Of a stretch of 64,000 bases of DNA, positions 18,301 through 55,008 are shown piece after piece. Each line of letters begins with the position of its first letter. Positions within the stretch are counted from its first letter, which is position 1. The notes below the pieces were generated by a model. The model was given only the letters and a program-made list of their open reading frames with translations. It was not told where the DNA came from and did not search any database. The position numbers were made by a program, and so were the translations under genes. The stretch lies in IMG/VR virus record IMGVR_UViG_3300025000_000055. The stretch is one strand, 5' to 3'. Source of the DNA: a virus (Duplodnaviria > Caudoviricetes).

Positions 18301-21300
18301 ACAAGCTGAAAAAGATAGACAAAAAGAATTATATCAAAATCAATTACAAGTTTCTAGGAAAACATCAGGGTTTTTAATAGCTCAAAATACTTTAAGAAAT
18401 GAGAAAGAATTTACTAGAAATAATGAAATAAGACAAACCTCATTACTACAAAACATTGCTGATACATCTAAAGGTCATTATGACAGCTGGTTATCAATAT
18501 TTGGGGTTAAAGGTGCTTTAACAACAGCATTATTATTAGCATTACCTTTTTTGAAAGATATTATTCAATGGGTTAAAAATAATTTTCCTTTTGGTGGTTC
18601 CAATTCTGGAATTGTTGATAAGGCTTTAGGTTTAATAGAAAAAAATGATACTAGTCGAAATGATGTGGATGAAAATGGAGTAGCAACTAAAAAAATTATA
18701 AATGCTCAAGGTAGAGAAAGTTATATTAAAGGTTCTGGTATTTTAATTAGAAGAAATGGACCAAAAATTTTAGAGTCTTTAAGTAAAGGTAAAGATAAGT
18801 TTGTAAATTCTAGTATCGTAAAAAATATTAGTAAGTATAGCTCAGATTTAAAAAATAAATTCTTTTCATCAGGTAGAACTGGAGTAATTGATGCTTCTTT
18901 TAGAGTTATTGATGATACTGGTAGAATTGTTAGAGAAGTTACTGTCAATGATTCTAATAAAATTATTCAAGCTATTAAAAATACTTTTGAGAAATTCTTT
19001 AATAATGCATTTGTTAGAGAAAAATTGGGTTCATCTGCATCAAAAATAGCTAGTAAAATAATAGGGGTTGTTACTAAAGTATTTAATTATAAAACTATAA
19101 TTAATCATATGGGTAAATTATCAAAAGCTTTTTTAAGAACAGGTGCCATTGTATTTGCAGCTCCAGTAATAATAACATGGGATTTAGCTACAGGTGCATA
19201 TGAAGCATCTAGAATATTTAGAGTTAGAAATGAATCAGTTGATGAAAAAATGAGAATAGCCTCATCTATAACTAAATCATTAATAGGATTCTTTCCTGTA
19301 ATAGATATAATATCAGAAATATTTAATGAACAAACCGGTATGAGTTTAAAACAATATGTTGCTACAACAATTTATTCAACATTAGCTTCATCTGAAGAAT
19401 TAAATAAATTAGAATTAAATAAAAAGGTATTTGAAGATGATAAGAATAAATATAATGAAGAGAATGGTACTGAGTTATCTTTAAATGCTTATAACGATAG
19501 GCAAAATAAAACTTTCTTCCAGAAATTTATCAGTAATCCTTTGTCTAAAACTAAAGATTTTTTATCTAAAAATTGGGATGATAGTAAAAAACAATGGAAT
19601 GTAGGTAAAAATTTTGCTTTAAGAACAGGACATAACATTGGCACTAGTTTATCTAAGAATTGGGATAGTTTTAAAGGAGGTTTTAGTAGAGGTTTTAATA
19701 TGATGGGTAATGATATTTCTGGAGCATTTTTTAATACAAATGAACGGTTGAAAACAATTAAGAATAGTTTATCTAAAAATTGGGAAGATTTACAAGAAAA
19801 TAGTAATAAGCAGTGGGTTAATATGAAAGGTTTTGTTTCTAAATCTTTAACTGATACTAATAATACTTTAGGTAAATTATTTGGATATAAAGATGAAGAA
19901 GGAAATGACGTTAGTTTTACAGAAGGATTTAATATAGGTTTTAAGGGAATTATAAAAGGTATTAGAGATAGTTGGAAAGAAATTGCTGATGGTGCTAAAT
20001 TTTATTGGGATAACACAAAAGCATTTACTGAAAAGAAATGGAAAGAATTAACTGAGAAACTCCCAAAAGCATTTGAAAGTTTAGATAATTGGTTAGGTGA
20101 ATTACTAGGATTTAAAGATAAAGATGGTAATAATTTATCTCTATCTGACTATGCAAATAATAAAATTAGTGGTATTAAAAAATATTTTTCTAAAGATGGA
20201 TACAATGGTTCATCATCATTCTTTAGTGGAAGAGGTGGGAATGGAAATGGTGGTTTTGGTGAAGAGCCAAATAAGCTTAATAATTTCAAATATTACTCAC
20301 AGTATGATGACAGATGGGGTAATTCAACTTATGATTTAAGTTCAGGTCATTCAGTTCACCCAACAATATCTGCTAGAGGTTGTGGACCAACTTCTATGGC
20401 AATGGTTGTTAGTCAATTAACAGGTAAACAATACGAACCACCCCAAATGGCTAAATTAGCTCAAGAGGGTGGGTATAGTACAAATGACGGCACAACATGG
20501 GGTTATTTTGATAGGGTTGCTAGGGACTTTAGTTTAAATAAAGAAACAATCAACCCTTCAAATATGCTTAATTATATTAATAAAGGTATGCCAGTAATCC
20601 TATCAGGTAAAAGAGATACCTATTCATTAAATGAATCCCCATTTACACCTGGTGGGCACTTTGTTGTTGCCGTTGGAAGAGATGATAAAGGTAATGTTTT
20701 AATAAATGATCCTAGAGGTTCTAAATTTTCTAAACCATATGATTTTAATAAAATTACTAAAGAAGCTAGACAGGGGTGGGCTTTTAGTTATAATGGTGGA
20801 GTTTTACCCCCTAATATAGTTTCATCAACAAATAGTAATATTATTTCTGAACAAAAACAATTATCTGTAATGGATCTATTCACCAAAATGTCAGAGGCTT
20901 TTACAATATATAACGAAAATGTAATGCTTGGAACAAATAAAAAATTATCATGGGATGACATTGAAGGAACTAGTAATGATTTCAATGTTTCAATATCAAC
21001 ATCTGAATCAAGTAGTTTATCTAATTTTATTCCTAAGAATTTACAAGAAGTCATTTTAAAGAAAACCTTAGAATTATCTATAGGTTCAGAATCATCAGGT
21101 GATTATACTAGTTCTAATAATGATACTAATGCATCTACAGGACGAAGAATTTCTCCATCTGTAGGTATTTTACAGTGGAGAGGTAATAATGCCAAATCAT
21201 TAATGCAAAGAATGTATGAACAATTGCCTGGTAATAGTGAAGCTAATTATTTTGCTAATCAAGTTGATTGGGGTAATCAAAATCCCTGGAATGATAGCCA

Positions 21301-22303: not shown

Positions 22304-24055
22304 ATGAAGCAGGAAGTTAGAGTAGTTACTAAATCAAATTTAAATATACGTTCCGCAGCAGGAACAACAAATCCAGTAGTTGGTTCATTATCTCCGGGTT
22401 CAATAGTTATTGTGATAGGTATAGTTGATATTGGTAATCAAACATGGTATAAATTAGAAGATGGTAGGGGTTGGGTTTGTGGATATAACCCAGGTGGTGG
22501 AGGTAGTGGTATATATCTTGAATTAATTAGAGACTTAGAGGCACCAGTTCCTCAACCATCTCCAACTCCTACTGATTCATCTACTACAACTGATAGTACC
22601 AATGATACTGAAGATAGTTTGGGTTTAGATGAAACAATAATCACAATGTTATATAATCAGCAAGCAAATATCAGTAAAAAAATTTCAGCATCAACTAGAT
22701 TATTTGGTTGTCCTTTTCAATTTATTAAACAAACCGACTTTAGAATTAATGATAATGGTTTAGATTTAGGTAGAAAGTATTTAGAAAATATAATTGCTGA
22801 ATCCCCAATTGTTTTTTTTACACCAGGGAGACCTAATTATTTACCAAATGTTTCACAAACACAAAAAGATGCTTTAAATAGCTTTTTTACTAAGATGCAA
22901 ACTGATGAAAGTTCTAAAAGTTTGTTAAATGATATAACTAATAGTACTGATGTTCGTTATTTTGATTTTATTAATGATTTTGCTGAGTATATGAGATATG
23001 TTAATTTGTTATGTAGAATGTGTGCTATTTATTTAGGTATTGAAAATAAAAAAGCTTTTGGTACAAATACAACTTATAAATATTATGATTGGACCGATTA
23101 TAAATATAAAACAGGATATGTTTCTAAAAATAAAGAAGGTTCTAATAAATCTGTATTTTCTTTAGAAGTAACGGATGATGTCAAAGAGTTATTTTTCGGT
23201 AACTTTAACTATATACAATTCTATGTGGAACCAAATACTTCATTCAGTGAATCCATGGGGGCTAATACAACTAGTTCTAAATTACAATCAATGTTTGAAA
23301 CAGGGGAGGGTTTAATGAAAGAACTCTCATTTTTAACTAATACGGCAGCTTTATCAGGTGTTGATGAAGCAACTAAATCTTTTGGTGTTAATATGGAGGA
23401 AATAAGTAAAAAAATGATTAATAATAATGGTGAGGGTTTTTTTTCTAGATTATTAGGAATGTCTTCAGCTGTTCTTAAAGGTTCAAATATTTTATTTCCA
23501 GAACTTTGGCAGGACTCCCATTATAATAAATCGTATAATGTAACAATTAATTTAGTTTCACCATATGGTGATAAAGAAAGTTTATATTTAAATATTTTAG
23601 TACCATTAATGCATATTTTAACTTTAGGTTTACCACGTCAATCCACAGCTAATAGTTTTGCTCATCCATTTTTAGTTAAAGCTTTTAGTAAAGGTTGGTT
23701 TTCATGTGAAATGGGGATAATTGATTCTATTCAAATTGATAAAGGTGGTAGTGGAGATGCATGGACTGTTGATGGTTTACCATCTGAAATGAAAATTACT
23801 ATTGGGGTAAAAGACCTTTACTCTAATTTAATGATAACACCTACAACTAAACCAGCTTTATTTTTTGAAAACCAAGGAATGATAGATTTTTTAGCTGTAA
23901 TGTGCGGTATAGATTTAACTAAGCCAAACTTTTTAATTAAATTAGAATCTATGTTTTCAGTATTTTTTGGTAAAGTTGTAAATTTACCTAAAGAAGCTTT
24001 TAATGATGTTATTCAAAGTCTTAGAGAAAAGATTTTACCACTATTCCGTATTTAA
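22304..24055 (+). CDS. SH3b-domain virion/baseplate-type structural protein (583 aa)
   Basis: N-terminal LNIRSAAG..WYKLEDGRGWV (SH3b); C-terminal GIIDSIQIDKG..VDGLPSEMKITI resembles tail-tube/baseplate folds; gene context. Confidence 0.65.
   Translation: MKQEVRVVTKSNLNIRSAAGTTNPVVGSLSPGSIVIVIGIVDIGNQTWYKLEDGRGWVCGYNPGGGGSGIYLELIRDLEAPVPQPSPTPTDSSTTTDSTNDTEDSLGLDETIITMLYNQQANISKKISASTRLFGCPFQFIKQTDFRINDNGLDLGRKYLENIIAESPIVFFTPGRPNYLPNVSQTQKDALNSFFTKMQTDESSKSLLNDITNSTDVRYFDFINDFAEYMRYVNLLCRMCAIYLGIENKKAFGTNTTYKYYDWTDYKYKTGYVSKNKEGSNKSVFSLEVTDDVKELFFGNFNYIQFYVEPNTSFSESMGANTTSSKLQSMFETGEGLMKELSFLTNTAALSGVDEATKSFGVNMEEISKKMINNNGEGFFSRLLGMSSAVLKGSNILFPELWQDSHYNKSYNVTINLVSPYGDKESLYLNILVPLMHILTLGLPRQSTANSFAHPFLVKAFSKGWFSCEMGIIDSIQIDKGGSGDAWTVDGLPSEMKITIGVKDLYSNLMITPTTKPALFFENQGMIDFLAVMCGIDLTKPNFLIKLESMFSVFFGKVVNLPKEAFNDVIQSLREKILPLFRI
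22337..22522 (+). repeat. SH3b-coding repeat, copy A (inverted relative to 30262-30447)
   Basis: 186 bp; the segment 22418-22522 matches copy B at 104/105 nt. Confidence 0.9.
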
Positions 24056-26425: not shown

Positions 26426-29068
26426 CTATATTATTTCTATAATTATATCATCAATATTAATGGTTAAATATTCAGGTATATAATTTTTTTGTTCTTCTTT
26501 AGTTAAAGTTGTTATATCAACTGCCCTATTCTCTATGACTTGTATTGATGAATCATAGTCATTTATTTTAACAAATTTAAGGTAATTAACTTCACTTATA
26601 TTTGTTTTAATTGCTGTAATTAAATTAGATACATAGAATGAATTATTTCCTTTAATATTTATATTTTCAATATAACTCTTAATATATAATTTTAATTTTT
26701 GTATTAAAGTTTCCTCATCATTATTAATAATTGGTTTTACTTTAAACCAAATTTTACAATTAACCTTATCTAATAATTCTTGTTCCTCTCCCACTATAAA
26801 GTTTTTAGAATATCCATATGTGTTATAAAATTTAATATCAATTGAATAATTATTGGTAACTAGATTAACCACATCTTCCATATTTTTATAATTCAAAAAT
26901 AATTTATTTATAAAATCATTATATTTGTCATTATTTTTCATTGTTTCTGCTTTTACAAAAGGAAAAAAATTTAAAAGTATATAATAATTTAATTCATCAA
27001 TTTGAACATATTTTATTTTACTTGTAATTAAATTTAATGGTTTTATAAAATCAATTTTTTCATCTATTGTAGAATACATATTTGTTAAGGTAAAGTTTTG
27101 TAAATCAGTAATATAATTAAATTTATGAGTGATATTACTATCAGAATATTTATAAAATACATAAATATTTATAATTGATTTACTCATAGGAATCAATTTT
27201 ATTCCCTGTTCACTAGTTAATATATCCTTAACATTAATAACTCTTATTTTTTCATCTAATGTTATATAATCATCTGTTTGTAATAACGAATCAAATGTAA
27301 ATAGATTTAATTCTTCGTCATAATTACTTAAATTAAAATCAATATAGCATGTTTCACTTCCATCCATAAAAACCCCTATTACTTTAATAACTAGAGAGGC
27401 TGCTGTAATAATATCAGTAAATTCATCGGTAACTATATTTAAATCAAAAGTTGGTGTTATATTAATAGATAATTTATAATAATCTTCTCCGATTAAAGCG
27501 TTTCTACTGATATTTAAATTACTACAAATAAATTGAACAATCGAATTACTATTAACATAACTAAAATCTAATTGTAACGTTTTTAATATAGAATTTAAAA
27601 AAAATCCTACTATAGCTGGGCTTTTTGTCATTGTTATTAAGAACGGATTAGTATAAATAAAATCATATTGTAAAAGTGTTAAATCACTATTAACCGTTAA
27701 TGATGGGATTATTTCTCCTGTATCTATACTATCATTAACATATTTAAATAAGTGACCGGGTTTTAATATAAACCTTCCGGATTGCTCATATTCTAAATCA
27801 AAATCAGATGGGTTTAATTTTAAATGTATAGAATTTGTACTGTATATATTTCCATCAGTTTCTTTACATAATATAAATGACCCAAATAATCTTTCTAACA
27901 TATCATTTCTTTTTTTAATAAATAACATTTGTGAATCATATTTATATTTTAAATTATCAAAATATATTTGTAGATCATTTTCATTACTATATGATTCTAC
28001 AGTAGAAAATTTTTCAACTGTCTTTGCCTGTAAATCATCTTTTGACAATGTATCTAAACCTAATTTACTTTCAGTTTGTGCAATAGCAAATAGGATTATA
28101 TTTTTATTATATTCATATATGTTAGAACTAGGTGTTATTAAAATATTATTACCTTCATATAAAGGAAAATTACCTTTACTCCCAATAGTATTATATACAT
28201 AAATTAATAATTCTGAATTAAATTTTGGTTGAAAATAATAATCTAATGGTGTGAATGATATATTAATTTGCCCATCATCTTTAAAAGAATAATAACAAAA
28301 AGGGTCTTTTAAAGGAGATGTATTAATTAATTTTTTTTGCATTTGAATATATTCACTAGAATCTGGAGCTTTATAAAATATTTCAAAATTTGCTAAATAA
28401 TCATTAAATTCTATTGGAATTGTTGGATAGTTTATTTTATCATTAGTTATAATATGCTCATTTTTAATAAATTTATTTATCTGTCTAACTTTAACTAATA
28501 AACCTAAATACTTACTATTATTATAATTAATTCTTTTTATTTTAATATAAGGATTATTAATATCACTGATTGTATTATTGAAATTTAAATTATAAGATGC
28601 TACATAAATATATTCACCAAGCTGTTTTGTAGCAGTAATTTTAATATCATAGTCTAACATAAATTGAATACCTTCAACATCTATAATCATATTTGAATCT
28701 AAGATAAATTCAATAAATGAACCCTTATTAGTTCCCAATCTAATAATATCATCTTCATTTACAAATATTATCAATCCCATTTGTGATGGTGTTGCAAAAA
28801 TATTATCTATTTGGAACATAGATGCGTAATTATATATTGATTCTGGTAGATTTGCTCTATTTGGGAATATTTCTGGTATAAGTGTAGTTATAGTATTAAA
28901 ACTATCTTCACCAATTGTACTTATCATTTCAGTAGTATAACCTAGTAACCCTATATTAAGTTGATTAACATCATCGGTATCAAAATATTTTTTAATTAGA
29001 CTAAGGGAAAAATCTTTTATTGAATAACTACTACTATAATCTCTGGTATTTTGAACCACTTTTATCAC
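26426..29068 (-). CDS. baseplate wedge protein (T4 gp6-like)
   Basis: N-terminal DFS..LIKKYF..LLGYTTEM..EIFPNRANLPESIYNYA; length 880 aa; context. Confidence 0.65.
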   Translation of the reverse strand: MIKVVQNTRDYSSSYSIKDFSLSLIKKYFDTDDVNQLNIGLLGYTTEMISTIGEDSFNTITTLIPEIFPNRANLPESIYNYASMFQIDNIFATPSQMGLIIFVNEDDIIRLGTNKGSFIEFILDSNMIIDVEGIQFMLDYDIKITATKQLGEYIYVASYNLNFNNTISDINNPYIKIKRINYNNSKYLGLLVKVRQINKFIKNEHIITNDKINYPTIPIEFNDYLANFEIFYKAPDSSEYIQMQKKLINTSPLKDPFCYYSFKDDGQINISFTPLDYYFQPKFNSELLIYVYNTIGSKGNFPLYEGNNILITPSSNIYEYNKNIILFAIAQTESKLGLDTLSKDDLQAKTVEKFSTVESYSNENDLQIYFDNLKYKYDSQMLFIKKRNDMLERLFGSFILCKETDGNIYSTNSIHLKLNPSDFDLEYEQSGRFILKPGHLFKYVNDSIDTGEIIPSLTVNSDLTLLQYDFIYTNPFLITMTKSPAIVGFFLNSILKTLQLDFSYVNSNSIVQFICSNLNISRNALIGEDYYKLSINITPTFDLNIVTDEFTDIITAASLVIKVIGVFMDGSETCYIDFNLSNYDEELNLFTFDSLLQTDDYITLDEKIRVINVKDILTSEQGIKLIPMSKSIINIYVFYKYSDSNITHKFNYITDLQNFTLTNMYSTIDEKIDFIKPLNLITSKIKYVQIDELNYYILLNFFPFVKAETMKNNDKYNDFINKLFLNYKNMEDVVNLVTNNYSIDIKFYNTYGYSKNFIVGEEQELLDKVNCKIWFKVKPIINNDEETLIQKLKLYIKSYIENINIKGNNSFYVSNLITAIKTNISEVNYLKFVKINDYDSSIQVIENRAVDITTLTKEEQKNYIPEYLTINIDDIIIEII

Positions 29069-30480
29069 TTCCTAAATCTTAATTTAAAAACATATTCTTG
29101 GTCAGAATCCGTAATAGACTCTATAAAAGGAGAACCTGAAAGTGTTTTTCCTGTAGACAATAAACTAGATTCATAAGTTTTTTTATAAACAAAATTACCA
29201 GAACTATTCATATTAAATTCAGCTAATGTTAATGGACTAAAATCTTCTTTAAATGCATATGCAAAATTAATAGAATATTCAGGTATTTTAAGTAAATTGT
29301 TTTTAGACCAACTAGATGTACTAGCCGGAATATTAGTTGGGAATATACCAAAATATTTAGACCAAAATAACAGTGTTTCATCATCAGGGCCACATAAAAA
29401 AAAATAAATACTACAAGCATAATCTAATATTTTTTTATAAATATACTCATCTTTTGTTACCAATTCCCCTCTATATACTTTTGAAATATAATCAACCCAT
29501 GCTTTAAGGGTTTTATATATAGAAAAATTATTATCATCTGTAAATGATATTGAAATATTACCAGCAGTTTTTGATTCAATATTACTTCGTCCATATTGAA
29601 CTTTATATCCTGTAAAGGTTTCCCCATGTTCCATAGTTTTAATATACTCATCTGATAATTCAAATGATTGTGCTGTATTTGATAAAAATGGATGAAAATC
29701 ATGATCTGCCGAAAAACTGGAAGTTAAAGATATTAATATATCAGGATTATTTTTAAAAAGATAATAAAATAATGCTTCATTTTGTAATTGTGAATGTAAA
29801 GAATAATTTCTATTACCATTATAATTAATTATATTAAGATCAGGCCTTGTGAAAAATATATGTGCAAATGTTTTTGATAAATGATAATCAGGAAAAGCAA
29901 CTTTAAATCTATTAAAATTATGAAATAATTGATAATTTAATTCTTGAACCCCCTTATATCCTATAAGATTTAAATTATTTCTTATTTTTTTTAAATTTTC
30001 TTCTACAAATGAATAATCTGTTAAATATGTGTATGTTTCAACATCATCATCTGTTGATGTTTTAGTTATTTTTTCCGCATCTGAAGTAGAAGTTGTATTA
30101 TTATTAAATTGTGATGAAAAAGACGATGAACTTGTATTATCATCACTATTAGTAGAGTCATTAGATGTTGTGGTATTATTATTGGTTGGTACTATTGGTG
30201 AATTTTCATCAACTTCTGGGGATTTTTGAGGTGGATCTGATTCTTCTAAATCTTGAACCATTTCAAGATATATACCACTACCTCCACCACCTGGGTTATA
30301 TCCACAAACCCAACCTCTACCATCTTCTAATTTATACCATGTTTGATTACCAATATCAACTATACCATTAACTATTATTATTTCACCTGTAGATAATGAA
30401 CCAACTATTCGATTAGATGTTCCTGCTGCGGAACGTATATTTAAATTAGGTTTAGCAGATACTCTAAGTTTTTGTCTCAT
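29065..30480 (-). CDS. SH3b-domain baseplate/tail-tube-like protein (probable start 30480)
   Basis: Same SH3b N-terminus as 22304-24055; HIFFTRPDL and YFGIFPTNIP tail-tube-like segments; GGTG SD. Confidence 0.65.
   Translation of the reverse strand: MRQKLRVSAKPNLNIRSAAGTSNRIVGSLSTGEIIIVNGIVDIGNQTWYKLEDGRGWVCGYNPGGGGSGIYLEMVQDLEESDPPQKSPEVDENSPIVPTNNNTTTSNDSTNSDDNTSSSSFSSQFNNNTTSTSDAEKITKTSTDDDVETYTYLTDYSFVEENLKKIRNNLNLIGYKGVQELNYQLFHNFNRFKVAFPDYHLSKTFAHIFFTRPDLNIINYNGNRNYSLHSQLQNEALFYYLFKNNPDILISLTSSFSADHDFHPFLSNTAQSFELSDEYIKTMEHGETFTGYKVQYGRSNIESKTAGNISISFTDDNNFSIYKTLKAWVDYISKVYRGELVTKDEYIYKKILDYACSIYFFLCGPDDETLLFWSKYFGIFPTNIPASTSSWSKNNLLKIPEYSINFAYAFKEDFSPLTLAEFNMNSSGNFVYKKTYESSLLSTGKTLSGSPFIESITDSDQEYVFKLRFRK
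30262..30447 (-). repeat. SH3b-coding repeat, copy B
   Basis: Reverse-complement match to 22337-22522. Confidence 0.9.
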
Positions 30481-30513
30481 TATATCACCAACTTCCATAT
30501 TATTAATTATTGT

Positions 30514-30525
30514 TAAATAAATGTT
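30514..30525 (-). promoter_or_regulatory. late-type promoter AACA-N6-TA
   Basis: AACATTTATTTA upstream of start 30480. Confidence 0.55.
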
Positions 30526-30702
30526 CAAGATAGAAAAAATAATGGTTTTTTTATTTATATATTATTTATTTAGAAAAATAAATAATCACTGACTAAATTA
30601 ACATATACTATTATAAAAATAACCTCCCGCAAAATTATATTACTTATATAAAAATATAGAGATATAAGTTATTTAAAAAAAATAAGGGAGAGTGTTATTT
30701 TT

Positions 30703-33482: not shown

Positions 33483-33517
33483 AAAAATCCTAATACTGAA
33501 AGGTGGTAAATAAGAAT

Positions 33518-34579
33518 ATGGCTATTTTTAATAGAAGTGGAAACGGATTTAATATACCCTCATATAGTGGGTACGACTGTTTGGTAAATGGTGACTTGGT
33601 TGCAGCTCAGGAGGGTTTTGAGGATCAACTGGCCATTATCGAATCTATTCATACAATGGACATGGAAGAAATTAATATGGAAAATGATATTAAAGTTTTA
33701 CGTGAATCTGGTGGAGATGAAATTAAAATTGAAACTCGTATGCAAGAGTTTGTAACCGTAACTGAAGGTGCTATGAGTAGTGTTTGGGAAAAAATTAAAG
33801 CTTTTTTCAGTAAAATGTGGGGTAAATTGAAGCAATTCTTTGCTTCTGTCATTCGTTTTTTTGATGGGTTGTTTAAAAGTGGTAAAGAATTTGCTACTAA
33901 ATATGAAAAAGAACTTAGAAGATTAAGTCTTTCTGGATACAAACATAAAATGTTTAATTATACCGAATTAGATAGTAACAACCACGTATCTAATGGTATT
34001 GAAGTTGCAATGAATGTTGTTGACCAAACCGGAGCTTTGAAGAGTTTTTCTTCTGAAGCTGACGCTAAAAAATGTTTGGAAGATATGGAAGAAAACAAAG
34101 AAGAAATTATAAATAAGGTCCGTGGAACTTTTATAGGTGGTGGTTCCAAAGACAATGAAGATTATAAAAAAGGATTATTTTCACACTTTAGAAGTGGTGC
34201 TAAAGATAGTGAAGATATTGAAGAGCAATCTGTTAATATTGGGAATATTATCACCGCTTTGATGAGTGACAAGTTTTCTAAAATGGCGGCTGATTCTGAA
34301 AAATCTGCTGAAAAATCATTCACTACGGTTTTAAAAGAAATTACCGGGTATGAAAAGGAATTTGGAAAATCTGTTGATGACAAAAATAAATCAGAAGATA
34401 AGAGAAAGCTTGCTTCTGTTCAAATTTCTATTATGCAAAAATATTCAACATTGTTTAGTGAAGCTAAAAATATCGCTCTTGAATATTTTGGGGCATGGAA
34501 ACACGCTATTACTGAAAGAGAGTCAGTATATAAGCAAGTATGTGTAAGTGCATTTAGATACAAAGAAGATAAGAAATAA
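33518..34579 (+). CDS. inner-head-like protein, paralog 1 (probable start 33518)
   Basis: Acidic leader, VTVTE/G, then amphipathic WEKIKAFFSKMW helix; host-like codon bias suggests high expression. Confidence 0.65.
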   Translation: MAIFNRSGNGFNIPSYSGYDCLVNGDLVAAQEGFEDQLAIIESIHTMDMEEINMENDIKVLRESGGDEIKIETRMQEFVTVTEGAMSSVWEKIKAFFSKMWGKLKQFFASVIRFFDGLFKSGKEFATKYEKELRRLSLSGYKHKMFNYTELDSNNHVSNGIEVAMNVVDQTGALKSFSSEADAKKCLEDMEENKEEIINKVRGTFIGGGSKDNEDYKKGLFSHFRSGAKDSEDIEEQSVNIGNIITALMSDKFSKMAADSEKSAEKSFTTVLKEITGYEKEFGKSVDDKNKSEDKRKLASVQISIMQKYSTLFSEAKNIALEYFGAWKHAITERESVYKQVCVSAFRYKEDKK

Positions 34580-34645
34580 TCAATAATGAATTATCAATTG
34601 ATAAACTAAACTTGAGTTTAAAAAATCAAAGGAGGACACAGTAAA

Positions 34646-35728
34646 ATGGCTATTTTTGGAAATAAGAGAAGCTCTTTAAATGACGATTTTGATATTTCAA
34701 AATATGACCACATTCAACCTACCACAGAAGCACTGGAACAAATTATAACCGAATCTGCTAAAGATTCTTATAAACTTCGTGCCGGTATGTATGTATCAGA
34801 TGTCATGATGGAACAAGCTGTATTGTTTGAATCAGCTGACCCAGAAGTTCTTTTGGAAGCCTTTGGCAAAGGTTTTTTTGCCAAAGTAAAAGATATGTTC
34901 GTAAAAATGTGGAATGCTGTTAAAGCTTGGTTTGAAAAAATGAAAAAATCTCTTGTTATGTTTTTCTCTTCGGGTAAAACTTTTGTAGATAAGTTTGAAA
35001 ATGATCTACGGAAAAAGAATGTCAAAGGTTATAAATATAAGTCATTTAAATATACCGCAAGTAAAGGTGATGCCTTTGCCAGCAAAATACTAAGTACAAT
35101 TGATAGTACTGAGAATGAATACGAGAATAAACTTGGTGGTTTGGATGTAAGAAGTTCGTCCAAACATAAAGATGCAATGGATTCCAAAAAAGATAATATG
35201 AAAGAAGAATATGACACTAACGATGATAAAGAATCTTTATTTAAGAGTATGGGTGTTGATTCTATTTCTGAATTACAAGAAGAATCATACCAAGAATATA
35301 GAAATGGTTCTAAAGAAAAAGAAGAATTTGAAGATTTTGAAAATAATAGCAAAGATGATATGATGAAATTCATTAAGGATAGTAGTAAAAATTTAGCCGA
35401 TCTTGAAAGATATCAGAAAGATATGGATTCACATTTTAGTAAAATTGTTAAGGCTATTGAAACGGCTGGTAATAAATATAAGAATGAAGAATTTTCTAAA
35501 GTTTCACCATATGTCTCTCATAGTGTTGAAATGTTGAGATTTTGTATGTCAATTCGTTCAGCATTAAGTAAAATGCATGTTGAATATGTAAAAGAAGCTG
35601 CCAGTGAATTTGAATCTATTTTAAAAGGTTATTTAAGATTTAAACCGCTTAAAGAAAGTCTTGATGTTAGTCATGACGACAAAACTGATACTACAAATAT
35701 TTTTGAAGCGGCAATGCGTTTGGTTTAA
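34646..35728 (+). CDS. inner-head-like protein, paralog 2
   Basis: VLLE/A then FFAKVKDMFVKMW; KGYKYKSFKY matches paralog 1 SGYKHKMFNY. Confidence 0.65.
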   Translation: MAIFGNKRSSLNDDFDISKYDHIQPTTEALEQIITESAKDSYKLRAGMYVSDVMMEQAVLFESADPEVLLEAFGKGFFAKVKDMFVKMWNAVKAWFEKMKKSLVMFFSSGKTFVDKFENDLRKKNVKGYKYKSFKYTASKGDAFASKILSTIDSTENEYENKLGGLDVRSSSKHKDAMDSKKDNMKEEYDTNDDKESLFKSMGVDSISELQEESYQEYRNGSKEKEEFEDFENNSKDDMMKFIKDSSKNLADLERYQKDMDSHFSKIVKAIETAGNKYKNEEFSKVSPYVSHSVEMLRFCMSIRSALSKMHVEYVKEAASEFESILKGYLRFKPLKESLDVSHDDKTDTTNIFEAAMRLV

Positions 35729-35733
35729 TATAT

Positions 35734-35773
35734 TACATTAGATGAATAGTGAATAAACTATTCATCTAATGTA
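35734..35773 (+). terminator. 17-bp stem hairpin terminator
   Basis: TACATTAGATGAATAGT..ACTATTCATCTAATGTA. Confidence 0.7.
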
Positions 35774-35791
35774 TTTTATATTTTCTATGAA

Positions 35792-35803
35792 AACAAATAA
35801 ATA
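35792..35803 (+). promoter_or_regulatory. late-type promoter AACA-N6-TA
   Basis: AACAAATAAATA. Confidence 0.55.
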
Positions 35804-35831
35804 AGAAAAAAAAAGGAGCTGAATATTATCT

Positions 35832-36911
35832 ATGAATTTAAAGAATATTTTTAATAAAAATATTATATGTAATAAACCAACATCACTTTTATTAACCACT
35901 GATAATATTGATTTTGATACAAGTCAATCTTGTTTAGAATATTTTATATTATTAGAAGAAAAATATTTTAATATTAATAAAAATCATTTACAATCAGCCC
36001 ATATTGGTATTAAAGATAATAATATAGAAATATTACAAGAGGGGTTTGGTGATTTTATTAATTCGGTTATTTCATTCTTTAAAAATCTTTTAGATAAATT
36101 TAAAGAATTTATGAAAAGAATCTTTATGGTTATTTATGCATATCTTGGTGATTTTGAAAAGTTTTTAGATAAATATAAAGAAGAATTAAGAGGTTTAGAC
36201 CCTAAGTTTAGTATTAAGGGATTCAAATATACTTTTAAATCAAATATACCAAATTTAGAAATTATTGATAACATAATTAATTCTTATAATAGTGAATTGA
36301 ATGATATTGATAATATGACAAGAGATAAAATTATAGAACAAAGAGAAAAATTTATGTCAACTACTAATTTGAATAAAATTAGAGCTAATATTATTGGTGT
36401 AACAGGTGAAGTATCATCAGAAGATTACTTAAAAGATGTTAAAAAGATATTTAGGGATAATAATGATGAAAAAATAGATATTGATGTAAATAAATCATTC
36501 TTAACAACAATTATAGCAGATTACCCATTTTTAAAAAAAGAATATAGTGATTCTATTAAAGAAAGAGATAATATAATTGTAATTATAGAAAAAATTAAAT
36601 CTTTTTTTGAAAAAAGTGCATCAGTTTATTATAAGGGTACTGATAAAACCATTGGGGTTAAATTATTAAATAGAAATGGTAATAAGATTCAAATTAATGA
36701 CACTGTTGAAAAGAATCATAGTGAAAGTAAAATTAATTTAATTAACACCTTTTTTAGTTTCAAATTTACACAATCAAAAGAAATTGGTAGTATCTGTACA
36801 ATAGCTTGTATTGAAAAAGCTAATGCACTAAAAGAATGCCTATCTTTTTATAGAGAAACTATTAAAAGATGTGCATTTAAAGGACCTAAGAAATCAACAG
36901 AAGATGATTAA
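35832..36911 (+). CDS. inner-head-like protein, paralog 3
   Basis: ILQE/G then FINSVISFFKNLLDKFKEFMKRIF; KGFKYTF. Confidence 0.65.
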   Translation: MNLKNIFNKNIICNKPTSLLLTTDNIDFDTSQSCLEYFILLEEKYFNINKNHLQSAHIGIKDNNIEILQEGFGDFINSVISFFKNLLDKFKEFMKRIFMVIYAYLGDFEKFLDKYKEELRGLDPKFSIKGFKYTFKSNIPNLEIIDNIINSYNSELNDIDNMTRDKIIEQREKFMSTTNLNKIRANIIGVTGEVSSEDYLKDVKKIFRDNNDEKIDIDVNKSFLTTIIADYPFLKKEYSDSIKERDNIIVIIEKIKSFFEKSASVYYKGTDKTIGVKLLNRNGNKIQINDTVEKNHSESKINLINTFFSFKFTQSKEIGSICTIACIEKANALKECLSFYRETIKRCAFKGPKKSTEDD

Positions 36912-36933
36912 AAAAGATTATGAGGTGAATATA

Positions 36934-38025
36934 ATGGACTATTGTTTAGAAACAAGTATATTTCATTTAGAATATGATAAAGATTTCTTTTCTACATTAT
37001 TGGAAAGAATGGAAGAAGAATCCGAATTTATCAATAAATCACTAAATAATAATTATATTGTGTTGGAATCTGATACAACTAATAATCAAGGAATATGGGA
37101 AAAGATTAAAACTTTCTTTAAACGTATATTTGGTGTATTTTCAGAAAAAACTAAAACAATTTTTGATTCAAATAAAAAATGGATGGATGAGAATTTTAAT
37201 AAATTAGATAAAATTAATTATGACAAATTGAAGATAACAATGTGGCCATTCTGGTTAATGACTATTAATGATATCAAAGGTGTTCTCAGTACAATTCAAG
37301 GAATAGCTGATAATGAATTAAATAATCCTAAAAAGTTAGAAAAATATAAGAATGTAGATGATATGAAAAATACCTTATTTAAAGAATATTTCAATGAAGA
37401 CAATGATTTAACCTTAGGATTAAAGAATAAATTTAGAAGTAATAATCCTAAAGGACCTATTAAAACACAAGAGCTATCTGGAGGAGAGTTAAAGACTAAA
37501 GTTGGTGAATTCAGAGAGTATTGTTATAATTATGGTAAAGATATAACACCCATGGTCCAAGCTTGGATTAATAAGGCCGAACAATCATTAACTCGTATTG
37601 AAAAAGTTTTAAAAGAAAGTATTGGAATGGATTTTTGTTTAATTGAAAATATTATTTATTCTAATACTGATTTGATTTATTGTAGTAATTTTGAAGCTAT
37701 ATTTGAAGCGGATAATACTACACAAACTAATGATAAAAGAAAGGATGAAAAAAAACCTGGAGAATCAACTAAACCAACTGAAGTCTCAGTTGTTAATACA
37801 GATGATAAAAATAAAGTTGATGAACAAAATGAAAATAAAAAATATTCTGATGTAAGCAATTCTCAACTCACTATGTATAAGAATATAGCTCAAATTATTC
37901 AATTAGCTATAACTTCAGCAATGACGGTTTTAGAAGAAAGATTTAGTGCGTATCTAAATGCTTTAAAGAAGATTGTTGCTGAAGGTGGAAATAATATAAA
38001 TAATAATCCTGATGAAAAAAAATAA
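36934..38025 (+). CDS. inner-head-like protein, paralog 4 (probable start 36934)
   Basis: GAGGTG SD; IVLE/S then IWEKIKTFFKRIF. Confidence 0.65.
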   Translation: MDYCLETSIFHLEYDKDFFSTLLERMEEESEFINKSLNNNYIVLESDTTNNQGIWEKIKTFFKRIFGVFSEKTKTIFDSNKKWMDENFNKLDKINYDKLKITMWPFWLMTINDIKGVLSTIQGIADNELNNPKKLEKYKNVDDMKNTLFKEYFNEDNDLTLGLKNKFRSNNPKGPIKTQELSGGELKTKVGEFREYCYNYGKDITPMVQAWINKAEQSLTRIEKVLKESIGMDFCLIENIIYSNTDLIYCSNFEAIFEADNTTQTNDKRKDEKKPGESTKPTEVSVVNTDDKNKVDEQNENKKYSDVSNSQLTMYKNIAQIIQLAITSAMTVLEERFSAYLNALKKIVAEGGNNINNNPDEKK

Positions 38026-39389: not shown

Positions 39390-39950
39390 TTATGAGAAAA
39401 TAGTTCTAGTTTTATTATTTTTAATTCTTTCTCGCCAAAATTTACGGTCAAAACATTCTTCCATTAATAAATTTGCTATATTATTAGCAAATATTTCTTC
39501 AGGATCTGTCTCATGTACATCATCGGATGTTTTTAATTCAATATTTTCATAAAATTCTTGAAGAGTTAACTTAAATTTTTCTTTAACCCAGTTTTGTCTA
39601 GATAAATTAAAATACCAACAAAGTATTCTATTATTTAAGACAGCATGGTGGGCTAATTCATGTAATAATAACCACATTATACTGTTAGTATGTTCATGTT
39701 TATCAATGAATATAAATATTTCATTAGTAATTGGTTGATAAAAAGCTCGAAATGCATTATCACCAGGATATTTTCTATTTTTATAGTAGGGATCTCTTTC
39801 AAAAAAGAATTTCTTATATTTTGAATTTATAATAAAAACATTGACATCTATTTCTTCTCCCCAAAATTTATCTGAGTTAAGTTGATCAAATTCTTTTTTA
39901 ATACCATTGACATCTATACCAATGACATCAAAATCAACAAAGTTTATCAT
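39390..39950 (-). CDS. HExxH metallopeptidase-like (ImmA/IrrE-type), paralog A
   Basis: LLHELAHHAV...PEEIFANNIA. Confidence 0.65.
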   Translation of the reverse strand: MINFVDFDVIGIDVNGIKKEFDQLNSDKFWGEEIDVNVFIINSKYKKFFFERDPYYKNRKYPGDNAFRAFYQPITNEIFIFIDKHEHTNSIMWLLLHELAHHAVLNNRILCWYFNLSRQNWVKEKFKLTLQEFYENIELKTSDDVHETDPEEIFANNIANLLMEECFDRKFWRERIKNNKTRTIFS

Positions 39951-39993: not shown

Positions 39994-40638
39994 TTAAGTT
40001 AAATATTTTATTAGTGTATATTTCATCATAAATTTCTTAATATTCTCAATATAATAATTTATAAATTTTTTTATAATACCTTTTTTCTTATTCCATTCCA
40101 TCTCATAATTAAGATATTCTTTCATTAATAAATCGGCCACATCATTAGCAAATTTTTCTTCAGGGTTGTCTTCATGTATACCTTTAGCTGAACACATCTC
40201 ATTATTTTTATAATAATCAAAAAAATCTATATTAAACCTTTCTTTAATCCATTTAATTTGAAACAAAGTAAAATACATATGTAGTATTTTACTATTATCT
40301 ATAGCAAGATGTGTTAATTCATGAAATATTGTCCAAAGTATAATTTCTTTATTAAAATTTTCATTTATAAATAATACTATTTCCTCATGTGTTGGTACAC
40401 AAAAACCATTAACATGATCAACAACAGTATAGTTTCCTGTACTATAACATAAATGGTTATGAAATATCGTTTTATATTTTATATTTATTAAACAAATACG
40501 AGCATCTATTTCCTTACCAAATACTAAATCAGAATTTATATTATTAATTATTTCAATAATATATTCTAAATCATCATGGTTAACATCAAAATTAAAAAAT
40601 TCTATCATTTTATTTTTTCTCCTTTTTTTAAATCTCAT
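39994..40638 (-). CDS. HExxH metallopeptidase-like (ImmA/IrrE-type), paralog B
   Basis: IFHELTHLAI...PEEKFANDVA; alignable with paralog A. Confidence 0.65.
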   Translation of the reverse strand: MRFKKRRKNKMIEFFNFDVNHDDLEYIIEIINNINSDLVFGKEIDARICLINIKYKTIFHNHLCYSTGNYTVVDHVNGFCVPTHEEIVLFINENFNKEIILWTIFHELTHLAIDNSKILHMYFTLFQIKWIKERFNIDFFDYYKNNEMCSAKGIHEDNPEEKFANDVADLLMKEYLNYEMEWNKKKGIIKKFINYYIENIKKFMMKYTLIKYLT

Positions 40639-51686: not shown

Positions 51687-54600
51687 TTATTTTTTAATAT
51701 TTAGACAAAATAAAATATATGATTTTAAATCTACTTCATATCTAATTTCATTGGGTATAGTATTTGATATTAATATAGGATAATTTTTATTAGACTCCAT
51801 TTTAGAATGTATATCCTCAATATATTGTTTTAGATGTATTAAAGAATTAAATGGTCCGTGAATTCCTAGTTGTTCCCCCCAAACAGTTTCAATCCAATAA
51901 ACCTTTTCATTTTTAATATAATAACATAAAGTATGATTAAATCCACCAGTATTTTCTTTTTCATTGTATTCAATAAAAAATAAACAATTAGCTTTATATA
52001 TTTTATTGTTATTAAATAAATTACGAATAAATATTGCTTGTTCATGAGATGAACCATTTTGAGTTTCAAGAAGTTCATCATCATTTTTTAATAAATTAAA
52101 TTCAGAGCTCTTAATATTATTTCTCATAAAATTATATACATCTTCATCACCATTAAAATTAGGTAAATCAGTTATATATAGTTCTGTAACAATATTATTT
52201 TCTTGTTTATTCATTATTTTTAATACATTTTTATCAACTGTATCTTTATTATAGTTTTCTAACTTACCTCTGGTTACAAAATAAGTTTCTTTTTGTTTAG
52301 TAAAATCATATGGTTTATATAAACTAGGATGTTTATCAATCATACCATTATTAGAAGCTTTTAATATTTCAGCTACAAATTGACTACAAAAATATTCATT
52401 TTCCCTATCAGTTTCTTTACCAATACTTATATTAAATAAACCAATAAAACTAAAACTTAATTTATCTTTTTTCTTTTTAAATTCATTTAGTTTATTTTTC
52501 ATTAAGTCTCTTTGTTCTTTAGTAACAAATATTACATAAAGGGAATAACTAGTATCTTTAATAACATCTTTAAGCAAACCATCTTTAATATCTTCATTAA
52601 TAAATGTCATATCAGAATCTTTAAATTTTCTACCAAAACTATACATATCATTTAAACTACTATCAAATGAAATACTTACATGACTATATGGATCGCCAGT
52701 AACAAACTTAATAACTTTAGCCATATTAGTATTAGTGTAAGTTAATAAAATAAATACTGGGTAAAGATTATTATTTGATTTATAAGATTCTTTAACAAAA
52801 TCTCTTTCACCCTCAAAATCAAATTGCCTATAATCTATAGTTAATTCCTCACCTTTTTTAATTTTATTTTTAGATTTATAAAAGTAAACTTTTTTCCCAT
52901 TTCTATTAGCTTGAACTAATACTAAATTAGGATTATTTGAATGATTAACAAATTGACCAGCTTTAGTTCGTTCATAATCTTTATCTGGATTACCAGTTTC
53001 ATTAACTTTCTTTATAGCTAATAATTTAGTATTATAATCAATACCTTTATTTGCAAATATACCTTTACCAGATATTTTTGAATCCTTAACATTATAGTAT
53101 GTTTCAGAAATATATGAATCATCTATCTTCTTTAAAGTTATAACTTCTAATTTTCTAGCACCACCAATATCATTTTTCATTTTATCATTTAAATATTCTT
53201 TAAATTGATAATCATTAATACTCTTTATTTCAATAACACTGATAATTTGTACAGGAGCCCCCCATTCAGTTTGATAAATATTATTCTCTAAATATTTATG
53301 TCTTTCGGCATATACACGTATAGTATAAACAATTTTACCAGAATTAAGTCTTTTTTTTATACTAACCCATTCGTTCTTTGGAAAAGTTATAACTGGTATT
53401 TTAATTTTAGTATTTTTTAATTCATTGGCATTAAAAAAACCTTCGTTACAAGGTATATCCCATTTCTTTTTAGCTTCTTCCTCCATTTTAACTAATCTAG
53501 TATAATAATCGGGTATTTCATCTAAATGATCTTTAGCTATCATTCTAGCTTTATCTAAATTTTTAGTGTGTTCCTGTTCAATTTTTATCCCTATTTTTAA
53601 TTGTTCAGAATCATAATTAGAATCTGGTCGTATATCATAACTAAGGTCAATAGCTTTTTCATCTTTATTCTCTTCTATAAAAGATTCTTTAATAAATTCA
53701 TCAAGAGATCTAATAAACCTTATATGTGTTTTATTAACCATGTCGCTTTTTTGTTCTTTAAACCCATATTTTTTAGCTAATTTGATAGATATATTATTAG
53801 TTTTTTTTATATTTAAAACAATTGATGTTATATCTCTTTTAGAACGATGACAGAATTGAATACCCTCATTCATTAAAACATGAGAAATACCTTTTCCACG
53901 AAACTCTTCTTTAATAAATATATTAAAGAAAGCATATTCTCTTTTAACCTTTACTTCAATAAATCCAGCATTTCTATTACCAACTTTATAAATGTATCTA
54001 AAAGATACTTTATTATAAAACTCCCTTGGTCCTAATTTTTCTTTATCTTTATTATCTCCTAATATTCTTAATGCACGTTGATATTCAGCTTCCATTATAA
54101 TATCAGTATTAATAATTTCATTATAAGATTCCATTAAAACAAATATAGGTCTGTTATCTTCACCATTAGATTCAATATATCTATCTTTAGCTTGTTTTAA
54201 AAATTCAAATATAGAATCATATTTTTTATCAATAACTTTGATATAACTAAAAGTTGTTTGACTCATTAATACTCTGTCTTTTAATTTTTCTTTTACTTTA
54301 TCAACTGCTATGATTTTATGATGGTTATTAGGATTTTCCCCACCTTGTTTGACTTCTATCTCTAATGCTAAAGAAACTATAAATACATCAGGAATATAAA
54401 ACTTTTCTTCACCTTCATATACATAATAATAAACATGAGGTGATGGTGTCATTACATCATCTGAATCAAATTGTAAAAATATATCTAAAAATTTTAATAA
54501 ATCTAATTCATATGAACCAGTATATGTTTTTTTATTACCATCAGACCATTCATACTCACCTGATATTTTTCTATTAGCTAACATTTTCTTTTGTTGTTCA

Positions 54601-54914
54601 GGACTACTTAATAAATGTATCTTACCATATTTACCAATCATCCTTTGTTTAAATATTTCTCTATATCTATCTTTACATTCAGGTCTTTCACAAAATCTTA
54701 AATATTTATTAGTAGTTTCATTCCATTTAGTGGGTCTTTTACATATAATACATCTTCCTTTATCTTTACCCGTTTTTACAAAATAAAAATATTGTGCTGG
54801 AGTAAAAGTTTTAGGAATCATACCCTCATGTTCTTGTTCAAGGTGTTCGTATAAATCTTCAATATGATTAAATTTATCTTCACATATATTACACTTAATC
54901 AAATTAAAACACAT
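51687..54914 (-). CDS. polyvalent multidomain protein: Zn-finger + TnsA-like nuclease, GNAT, DUF5661-like, unknown domain, SET, permuted papain-like amidase, transglutaminase-like
   Basis: C2H2 CNIC..H...H; YIPDVF..LEIEVK; EEFRGKGI..KYGF; GIKIEQEH..DHL.EIPDYY; GKGIFA..NHS..PN..GEELTIDY; YSHVSI..YFCSQFVA; NHTLCYY..WIE. Confidence 0.8.
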   Translation of the reverse strand: MCFNLIKCNICEDKFNHIEDLYEHLEQEHEGMIPKTFTPAQYFYFVKTGKDKGRCIICKRPTKWNETTNKYLRFCERPECKDRYREIFKQRMIGKYGKIHLLSSPEQQKKMLANRKISGEYEWSDGNKKTYTGSYELDLLKFLDIFLQFDSDDVMTPSPHVYYYVYEGEEKFYIPDVFIVSLALEIEVKQGGENPNNHHKIIAVDKVKEKLKDRVLMSQTTFSYIKVIDKKYDSIFEFLKQAKDRYIESNGEDNRPIFVLMESYNEIINTDIIMEAEYQRALRILGDNKDKEKLGPREFYNKVSFRYIYKVGNRNAGFIEVKVKREYAFFNIFIKEEFRGKGISHVLMNEGIQFCHRSKRDITSIVLNIKKTNNISIKLAKKYGFKEQKSDMVNKTHIRFIRSLDEFIKESFIEENKDEKAIDLSYDIRPDSNYDSEQLKIGIKIEQEHTKNLDKARMIAKDHLDEIPDYYTRLVKMEEEAKKKWDIPCNEGFFNANELKNTKIKIPVITFPKNEWVSIKKRLNSGKIVYTIRVYAERHKYLENNIYQTEWGAPVQIISVIEIKSINDYQFKEYLNDKMKNDIGGARKLEVITLKKIDDSYISETYYNVKDSKISGKGIFANKGIDYNTKLLAIKKVNETGNPDKDYERTKAGQFVNHSNNPNLVLVQANRNGKKVYFYKSKNKIKKGEELTIDYRQFDFEGERDFVKESYKSNNNLYPVFILLTYTNTNMAKVIKFVTGDPYSHVSISFDSSLNDMYSFGRKFKDSDMTFINEDIKDGLLKDVIKDTSYSLYVIFVTKEQRDLMKNKLNEFKKKKDKLSFSFIGLFNISIGKETDRENEYFCSQFVAEILKASNNGMIDKHPSLYKPYDFTKQKETYFVTRGKLENYNKDTVDKNVLKIMNKQENNIVTELYITDLPNFNGDEDVYNFMRNNIKSSEFNLLKNDDELLETQNGSSHEQAIFIRNLFNNNKIYKANCLFFIEYNEKENTGGFNHTLCYYIKNEKVYWIETVWGEQLGIHGPFNSLIHLKQYIEDIHSKMESNKNYPILISNTIPNEIRYEVDLKSYILFCLNIKK

Positions 54915-54931: not shown

Positions 54932-54943
54932 TATGTAAATGTT
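54932..54943 (-). promoter_or_regulatory. late-type promoter AACA-N6-TA
   Basis: AACATTTACATA upstream of the polyvalent gene. Confidence 0.6.
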
Positions 54944-54973
54944 TTTTATATGTGCAAAATATAAATAAATAAA

Positions 54974-55008
54974 AAAAATCAGGTAGATATTTTATCTACC
55001 TGATTTTT
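54974..55008 (-). terminator. 16-bp stem hairpin terminator
   Basis: AAAAATCAGGTAGATA-TTT-TATCTACCTGATTTTT. Confidence 0.7.

Follow-up and report, generated by a model that had tools for sequence, protein, structure and literature searches.

Putative prohead protease sites separate the enzyme modules of a jumbo-phage polyvalent protein that may be delivered from the capsid

What use does a phage make of a gene that joins seven unrelated, mostly enzymatic modules in one chain, and could these modules act separately? This question is raised by an open reading frame (ORF) located at 51687..54914 on the minus strand of a 64,000-nucleotide stretch (here termed the window) of IMG/VR virus record IMGVR_UViG_3300025000_000055. 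Our analysis argues, with moderate probability, for a capsid-delivered polyvalent effector, a "cargo train" that would be cut by the prohead protease at the Glu residues of its linkers and ejected together with the DNA. The reading frame is uninterrupted over 1075 codons, which confirms the ORF proposed in the original prediction. Translation from the ATG gives 1075 amino acids (aa); the protein probably has 1071 aa and starts at the TTG at position 54902, 12 nt downstream of the ATG, because the database holds an identical protein of 1071 aa, the proteins of relatives begin with MIKC, and the spacing from the Shine-Dalgarno sequence GAAAGGA is better for the TTG.

The source virus is a jumbo phage related to AR9, PBS1, and phiR1-37. 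The window has a G+C content of about 24% and codes for a beta-like subunit of a multisubunit RNA polymerase (RNAP), for many members of "virion structural" PHROG families, and for a protein of 3290 aa. At the DNA level, the comparison retrieved no cultured phage matching the window; the window aligns collinearly over its entire length with the IMG/VR contig G001 (249,853 bp), whose proteins are about 80% identical. Long contigs that bear relatives of the nuclease described below, identified in an IMG/VR scan with 235 relatives, all measure 200 to 280 kb.

The modules, all on the minus strand, are as follows. Module 1 (54129..54914; aa 1-262) contains a C2H2 Zn finger, a second Cys cluster, and a PD-(D/E)XK nuclease (DUF7487/phrog_15137) and ends with PIFVLME/S, where the slash denotes the putative cleavage point. 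Residues 5-242 match phrog_15137, annotated as "endonuclease" (E 3e-65), and the residues C8/C11/H24/H29, C55/C75/C80, and P175-D176...E185/E187/K189 are invariant in 22 diverse homologues, the last five being those expected of a PD-(D/E)XK enzyme. A spacer of 13 aa (54090..54128) lies between the tandem sites VLME/S and IIME/A, and this double site is kept family-wide. Module 2 (53685..54089; aa 276-410) is a GNAT acetyltransferase (PF00583/PF13673; 36.1 bits versus a Pfam gathering threshold of 23.6) and ends with FIKE/S. It is followed by module 3 (53442..53684; aa 411-491), a DUF5661 domain (PF18905; 50.8 versus 27 bits) that ends with PCNE/G. Module 4 (53103..53441; aa 492-604), ending with YISE/T, is weakly ASCH-like; its match to PF04266 is below the threshold (17.3 versus 21.2 bits) and is a lead only, and an atlas search with this segment gave no usable match. 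Module 5 (52788..53102; aa 605-709) is a SET-domain methyltransferase (PF00856; 32.2 versus 22.4 bits) and ends with FVKE/S.

The two C-terminal modules, whose structures were predicted separately, both have peptidase-type folds. Module 6 (52182..52787; aa 710-911) ends with IVTE/L and shows the permuted order, His and then Cys, on a papain-like fold of the YiiX/C92 type; H745 and C843 are invariant across 60 homologues. Its AlphaFold2 model has a predicted local distance difference test (pLDDT) value of 93, and the best Protein Data Bank (PDB) folds were 3kw0, a Bacillus cereus cysteine peptidase (E 4e-4), and YiiX (2if6). Its score for Pfam Peptidase_C92 is 17.7 bits, below the cutoff of 27, and we regard the module as a divergent member or a sister family of Peptidase_C92, since the template modeling score is only about 0.46. 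Module 7 (51690..52181; aa 912-1075; pLDDT of 93) has a transglutaminase-like cysteine-protease fold (DUF553-like), with CPR-C4, vasohibin, and LapG as its nearest PDB folds. Its active-site motif is GSCHDQ in 16 other homologues and GSSHEQ in the clade studied here, with invariant His and Glu. The Cys-His-Asp/Glu triad is thus incomplete because the nucleophilic Cys is Ser in this clade, and the sequence suggests that the fold was kept and the chemistry was probably altered or lost. Taken together, five of the seven modules have an above-threshold assignment at the family or fold level, which places the chain among polyvalent proteins (2 to 15 distinct, mostly catalytic domains). The domain list of the original prediction, from the nuclease to the transglutaminase-like module with its GSSHEQ motif, thus holds in the light of the Pfam and PHROG matches, the invariant residues, and the predicted folds. 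A zincin-like metallopeptidase (MPTase) or an assemblin-like peptidase was also sought in the chain, with no Pfam match at E values up to 1.

All seven sites (VLME/S, IIME/A, FIKE/S, PCNE/G, YISE/T, FVKE/S, and IVTE/L) lie between independently defined domain envelopes, and the P2' residue is Tyr or Phe in six of them, a feature absent from the original prediction. The original prediction placed two hydrophobic residues, any residue, Glu, and a small residue at every junction; all seven sites were found at the residues predicted, but PCNE/G and IVTE/L deviate from this form. With a loose pattern, seven of nine matches fall into the approximately 17% of the chain that lies between hidden Markov model envelopes (binomial p ~1e-4), and each of the six inter-envelope gaps holds at least one site. 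Since the pattern was defined after the data had been seen, independent tests on homologues carry more weight.

Such tests were done with the motif h-x-E-[SAGT], in which h is a hydrophobic residue. When aa 710-1075 were compared by phmmer with 1.8 billion proteins, 2139 hits were obtained, whose envelopes (query 4-196 and 206-363) begin and end where the motif-bounded modules do. Among representatives clustered at 50% identity, 80 of 143 internal N-terminal edges of the C92-like module (56%) have the motif within 7 aa, as opposed to 5.7% at random positions and 2 to 6% for decoys with Asp or Lys instead of Glu; a typical flank reads ..ESTYIE/ATKDD... The possibility that the motif is no more common at junctions than inside domains is therefore not borne out. 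For the variable part of the nuclease family the ratio of observed to expected motifs amounts to 2.07, and for polyvalent proteins without the nuclease, many of which begin with a metallophosphoesterase, it amounts to 1.78. In the rest of the G001 proteome this ratio is 1.01, with decoys at about 1, and decoys with Asp, Lys, Gln, or Asn are not enriched. The excess corresponds to about one site per 170 to 250 residues, or about one per module. Among the 276 ORFs of G001, the two most motif-enriched are an inner-head paralog and the polyvalent protein. A test for breaks between high-scoring segment pairs was also positive across the family (16%, compared to 4 to 6% for decoys); it was weighted lightly because it is noisy and the sequences are related.

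A further property of the sites is that modules are exchanged at them. The proteins P0001, P0003 (1469 aa), and P0004 (1511 aa) were cut at the motif and the resulting pieces were compared. Pieces match end to end, namely, in 135/135 aa for the GNAT module (with that of P0004), 105/105 aa for the SET module, and 164/164 aa for the C-terminal module. In P0004 an extra module of 282 aa is inserted between VLME/S and LISE/S, and the ASCH-like module is replaced by an unrelated one bounded by VLKE/S and YYFE/S. In P0003 a Peptidase_M23 module lies exactly between IVKE/S and IITE/L. Insertions and replacements thus occur precisely at the Glu-containing linkers, as anticipated. The weakest junction, PCNE/G, corresponds to IISKE/S and DVLKE/S in relatives, and the Glu, whose loss in homologues would have spoken against the prediction, is kept in them at every junction. 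In addition, P0004 contains a second, weak DUF553-like module (aa 765-960) and a second, short SET-like piece (aa 1061-1146), and modules therefore also duplicate within one chain. The junctions were also considered as recombination joints conserved at the DNA level. This was rejected because nucleotide identity at the junctions is no greater than chance; they share at most 12 nt, which equals the 95th percentile of the controls.

Among 119 homologues retrieved with the whole protein, the nuclease is the only constant part. Nearly everywhere it is followed by PIF-h-h-x-E-[SN] and then, about 10 aa further on, by h-x-E-[SAG]. The module repertoire across the family includes NUDIX, metallophosphatases, P-loop kinases, the M23 peptidoglycan peptidase, and GNAT. 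Most related jumbo phages encode the nuclease as a standalone protein of about 250 to 260 aa. The 76 complete IMG/VR orthologues include 47 standalone nucleases and 27 polyvalent forms. The 47 standalone proteins stop at ..PIFMV or ..KIFMP; in the polyvalent forms, the P1 Glu is located two residues beyond this point, so that a cut at the first site would recreate the nuclease in its natural standalone form. Separately, the core of the nuclease (aa 50-227), which excludes the first Zn finger, has matches within genes annotated as "DNA gyrase subunit A" in the Fusobacterium phages JD-Fnp1/4/6/7, and the sequences suggest an intron- or intein-borne relative of the nuclease. We also observed a second large class of polyvalent proteins (P0122, P0128, P0129, P0134, P0214, and others) of 900 to about 2900 aa. 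These proteins begin not with the nuclease but with a calcineurin/Mre11-like metallophosphoesterase (MN.IW..TDWHLW ... GDLCDP) and contain one or two C92-like modules flanked by sites of the form ..h-x-E/[AS].

The same type of site is found in capsid and inner-head proteins. Six phages of the group have major capsid proteins, 27 to 71% identical, in which LIKE/SS, IVRE/SS, IVKE/SS, FVRE/ST, FVKE/ST, and ILQE/SV occupy one aligned column at the border between a poorly conserved N terminus and a conserved core; the AR9 site, ILQE/S, lies at about residue 85. Judged from this alignment, the column bears the signature of a maturation site, with the same residues as the linkers of the polyprotein. 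The AR9 capsid protein has a clear homologue of solved structure, the 534-aa "Major structural protein ORF12" (PDB 7x30; E 2e-119). Four tandem paralogs that are likely inner-head proteins are encoded at 33503..38025 on the plus strand, and the N-terminal 45 to 90 aa of each contain one to four h-x-E-[SAG] sites. The last site of each directly precedes a shared amphipathic helix (TVTE/G, VLLE/A, ILQE/G, and IVLE/S), so that the motif noted earlier before this helix is present in all four.

A protease that may cut such sites is encoded by the relatives. Using hmmscan, the protease of G001 (L006:11369-12199) scored above the Pfam cutoffs both for Peptidase_S77 (T4 gp21; 34.1 versus 27) and for S80 (phiKZ gp175; 25.8 versus 23.4), and a protease of the S77/S80 type is present in all five further complete relatives. 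A profile search of the G001 record with PF03420 gave no match, which we attribute to a limit of sensitivity and not to absence, since hmmscan of the protease ORF passed both cutoffs. Prohead proteases are known to cleave after Glu, at L/I-x-E in T4, at S/A-x-E in phiKZ, and at A-x-E, with Ser preferred at P1', in SPN3US (PMC9026906, PMC5694885, PMC10052503). With Asp at P1, processing in T4 is blocked, whereas targeting is not (PMC9026906). The linkers match the T4-type L/I-x-E and not the phiKZ-type S/A-x-E. As short, Glu-ending sites, often with a small P1' residue, that are conserved in homologues and enriched at module edges, the seven sites resemble those of S77/S80 substrates.

Complex prediction with residues 1-205 of the G001 protease and residues 236-285 of P0004 gave a score of 0.68, and the best control gave 0.00; among reference cases, 51 of 78 solved complexes and 2 of 108 mismatched pairs attain this mark. 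The runs shared at least 68% of the contacts, with a pLDDT of the partner of at least 44. The predicted interface comprises substrate residues 251-261 (RPIFVLME/SFN), of which residues 253-256 run along protease residues 145-150. In the model, H83 (GEAGHP) and S143 (AFSLR) of the protease touch substrate residues 257-259. Both motifs are shared with AR9 g114, and the two residues are expected to be the catalytic His and Ser given the Ser/His mechanism of these enzymes (PMC7411985). The Glu-Ser bond of the first linker is thus predicted to lie against the conserved His and Ser of the protease. In the AR9 prohead protease gene g114 (L020:38502-39653), an intron splits the codons of GEAG/HP at the presumed catalytic His.

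In the mechanism that we propose, the conserved Zn-finger PD-(D/E)XK nuclease would be the carrier, with a variable set of enzyme modules fused to its C terminus. Module boundaries have the form hydrophobic-[I/L/V]-x-Glu followed by Ser, Ala, Gly, or Thr, a gp21-type site that also marks off the propeptide of the major capsid protein in this phage group. The gene would be transcribed late, from a promoter of the AR9 nonvirion RNAP type, and the polyprotein would enter the prohead. The S77/S80-family protease would then cut after each linker Glu, yielding seven free domains and one spacer peptide of 13 aa. These pieces would be ejected along with the DNA and be at work before phage gene expression starts. 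A built-in peptidase would not be needed, because the capsid-maturation protease would double as the release enzyme. The analysis itself establishes the identities of the domains, the pattern of the sites, its enrichment across the family and its coincidence with module edges and with the C terminus of standalone nucleases, the family of the protease, the matching site of the capsid protein, and a predicted complex of protease and linker; we infer the incorporation into the head, the cleavage, the ejection, and the targets of the enzymes. The sequence-based checks proposed along with the original prediction were all favorable, and none of the contrary sequence findings that it had named was observed.

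Several observations weigh against delivery of a protease-cut polyprotein. The motif is short and occurs at expectation in the general proteome, where it is neither avoided nor enriched; the motif alone is therefore no proof of cutting. Of the sites themselves, PCNE/G carries Pro and Cys at P4 and P3 and lacks a hydrophobic P3, and IVTE/L has Leu in place of a small residue at P1'. The chain shows no N-terminal targeting propeptide, its Zn finger beginning at residue 3 to 8 or so. The S77/S80 protease is not encoded within the 64-kb window and is known from the relative, whose proteins are about 80% identical. The complex was folded without alignments, with a pLDDT below 50 for the substrate itself, and its score, which expresses the confidence of a model and is not a measurement, may partly reflect a likeness to solved protease-peptide complexes. 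As to the virion, the AR9 homologue g233 is not labeled "virion protein," although other AR9 genes are, and the homologue is not listed among the 15 proteins identified in the DC4 virion proteome. The matches among cultured phages are all standalone nucleases. Finally, the substrates of gp21, gp175, and gp245 mostly lose N-terminal propeptides and are not cut between folded enzymes (PMC10052503, PMC9026906).

The evidence can also be read in other ways. The linkers may be uncleaved flexible joints, a structural or modular-evolution feature of one multi-enzyme chain that acts late in the cytoplasm or is packaged whole like the virion RNAP (vRNAP) of N4. This would agree with the transfer of some polyvalent proteins in unprocessed form (PMC5512222), with the expected frequency of the motif in ordinary proteins, where it is not intrinsically a cut signal, and with an aromatic P2' residue that could simply be where the buried part of each domain begins. 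A passive linker, however, needs no invariant Glu, hydrophobic P3, and small P1', and the absence of enrichment for the Asp, Lys, Gln, and Asn decoys is at odds with it. It also leaves unexplained why one Glu-specific pattern is common to the linkers, the capsid propeptide boundary, and the N termini of the inner-head paralogs, why standalone nucleases terminate at the site, and why complex prediction places the linker at the active site of the protease. We therefore consider uncleaved joints unlikely. Cutting by the prohead protease could, on the other hand, yield pieces that are not injected effectors but that serve in the head (in DNA condensation, scaffold-like filling, or modification of phage proteins) or are degraded and expelled. 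T4 core proteins are indeed cut into many pieces that leave the head (PMC9026906), and SET and GNAT enzymes could modify head-internal or DNA-binding proteins of the phage. Yet the catalytic residues of the modules are conserved, the repertoire resembles host-directed or antidefense payloads, an M23 peptidase has no substrate inside a capsid, and the fast turnover of modules between close relatives is typical of conflict genes. A purely internal or discarded role is in our opinion distinctly improbable.

It may also be asked whether cutting at the Glu sites is due, in cis or in trans, to a module of the polyprotein itself, either the YiiX/C92-like or the transglutaminase-like one, comparable to the MPTase of other polyvalent proteins. 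Both modules are of peptidase-type fold, and H745 and C843 of the former are invariant. Vasohibins, structural neighbors of module 7, cut a Glu-Tyr bond. Processing in cis has moreover been predicted for polyvalent proteins by Iyer et al. (PMC5512222). The distribution of the modules is opposed to this explanation. Sixty-six of the 119 members of the nuclease family have no C92-like module and keep the double Glu site, and no C92 module is seen anywhere in 4 of 5 genomes that have a C92-less polyvalent protein, these four genomes being only 80 to 85% complete. The transglutaminase-like module had 60 phmmer domain hits among about 260 proteins, of which 18 were strong and full length, and its Cys has been lost in the present clade, where the sites are intact. 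The capsid protein and the inner-head paralogs bear the sites without containing any such module. A cis-acting protease was consequently rejected as a general mechanism, and we regard cutting by an own module as very improbable here.

Expression and genomic context were also inspected. The original prediction described the ORF as driven by a late promoter, and an element of the AR9 type, AACATTTACATA, was indeed found 18 nt upstream of the ATG, at 54932..54943 on the minus strand; its sequence agrees with the consensus of AR9 late promoters, AACA-N6-TA/G (PMC5312081). This consensus is present at most 70 nt upstream of 15 of the 58 ORFs in the window, compared to 5.5% of random windows and 4 of 58 for reverse-complement controls. 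The 15 sites, which include those at 5869, 12278, 24770, 30915, 33471, 35792, 44138 (minus strand), 45106 (minus strand), 47134 (minus strand), and 55431 (minus strand), have the sequence (A)AACA-N6-T(A/G), often extended by ..TAA, lie 14 to 49 nt (mostly 24 to 49 nt) upstream, and mostly precede structural genes. A terminator-like hairpin followed by a T run (54971..55004, minus strand) ends the upstream gene and sets the ORF apart as its own unit. The ORF adjoins a baseplate-wedge-like gene, and the same synteny is seen in AR9, BpSp, and DC4. The only experimental hint that the protein is located in the virion comes from GenBank, where the phiR1-37 homologue g237 bears the note "phage structural protein." According to the AR9 record, g078 is proteolysed and only its RNAP domain is found in virions, which, by analogy, provides a precedent for domain removal in this phage group. 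An HD domain, as in the HD-RNAP fusion of AR9 g078, was sought in the vRNAP subunit of the window and none was found.

Other genes of the window include the ORF of 3290 aa (12326-22198, plus strand), whose sole family match is to phrog_26249 over the first 578 residues and which has 80% identity in G001. Two virion-structural-family proteins, encoded at 22304-24055 (plus strand) and 29065-30528 (minus strand), start with a bacterial SH3_3 domain and a short amidase PHROG match, and the latter also matches a putative tail-tube family; judging by these domains, both may be cell-wall-binding virion proteins. The adjacent ORFs 39390-39950 and 39994-40638 (both minus strand) are paralogs with about 40% identity, present as a single copy in G001.

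The finding, in our judgment, unites two known themes, namely, polyvalent proteins and Glu-specific prohead proteases, and its support from the sequences is strong. If the proposed mechanism is true, it explains how many enzymes are delivered at infection, each free to reach a different target. It would furthermore provide a sequence rule to mark domain boundaries in thousands of metagenomic polyvalent proteins, to predict packaged proteins, and to find antidefense or host-takeover modules as site-flanked segments swapped between close relatives. More tentatively, it is possible that the linker rule reflects a general loading-and-release system of AR9-like jumbo phages, in which any enzyme fused behind a packaged carrier with a gp21-type h-x-E/S site could reach the host. 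The carrier may be the Zn-finger nuclease in the present family and the N-terminal metallophosphoesterase in the second class, with its proteins of up to about 2900 aa. Were this so, thousands of uncharacterized polyvalent proteins would be protease-released effector libraries, the injected proteome would be readable from the sequence, and protease specificity would coevolve with the linkers. The mechanism also points to a natural way of bringing proteins of choice into the capsids of jumbo phages, comparable to the use of the capsid-targeting sequence (CTS) of T4, short fusions of which have served to load foreign proteins into T4 heads for subsequent delivery (PMC9026906).

How does this system compare to those already known? 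Many features are shared with the polyvalent proteins described in PMC5512222: the presence of many unrelated catalytic domains, including GNAT and nucleotide-directed enzymes, the encoding by phages beside virion genes, the rapid shuffling, the proposed delivery with the DNA, and the proposed processing into units. According to the same source, those proteins are proposed to be processed by a built-in zincin-like MPTase, a common but not universal feature (present in about 36% of them), or by a C-terminal assemblin-like peptidase, whereas here the sites match those of a separate, trans-acting prohead protease. Term searches of PMC5512222 did not turn up a constant N-terminal Zn-finger nuclease carrier or SET, C92-like, and DUF553-like modules. 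Linkers as sites for a separate prohead protease found no mention in that study, in the 2021 jumbo-phage survey, or in a wider literature search.

With the internal proteins IPI-III and Alt of T4, the present protein has in common a Glu-specific S77 protease (gp21), sites of L/I-x-E and then a small residue, and enzymes, such as the ADP-ribosyltransferase Alt in T4, that are or would be packaged, trimmed, and ejected. Each T4 cargo is a separate gene product with an N-terminal propeptide of 7 to 20 aa; here, up to seven or more cargos would follow a folded carrier in one chain, with internal sites and no recognizable N-terminal CTS. The phages phiKZ, 201phi2-1, and SPN3US (gp175/gp245) are likewise jumbo phages with a virion RNAP and a related S80 protease that cleaves after Glu, and their paralogous inner-head or ejection proteins carry multisite propeptides, SPN3US favoring Ser at P1' (PMC5694885, PMC10052503). 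The P3 residue is Ser or Ala in phiKZ-type sites (S/A-x-E, A-x-E) and Ile, Leu, or Val here, as in T4, and the literature searched on these three phages yielded no case of several independent enzymes freed from one precursor.

The closest named relatives of the carrier are AR9 g233, PBS1 gp124, and phiR1-37 g237, annotated as "endonuclease fused to N-terminal Zn finger domain" and encoded beside the baseplate wedge gene. They are 38 to 48% identical to aa 5-245, a range that also includes a Staphylococcus jumbo-phage endonuclease, and differ in being standalone proteins of about 236 to 243 aa that end where the first linker begins. Picornavirus and retrovirus polyproteins, finally, are also single products cut at short conserved interdomain sites by a virus protease. 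They are replication or structural precursors of RNA viruses with the protease in the chain, whereas the present protein would be an accessory payload of a double-stranded DNA phage, cut by a separate protease of capsid maturation.

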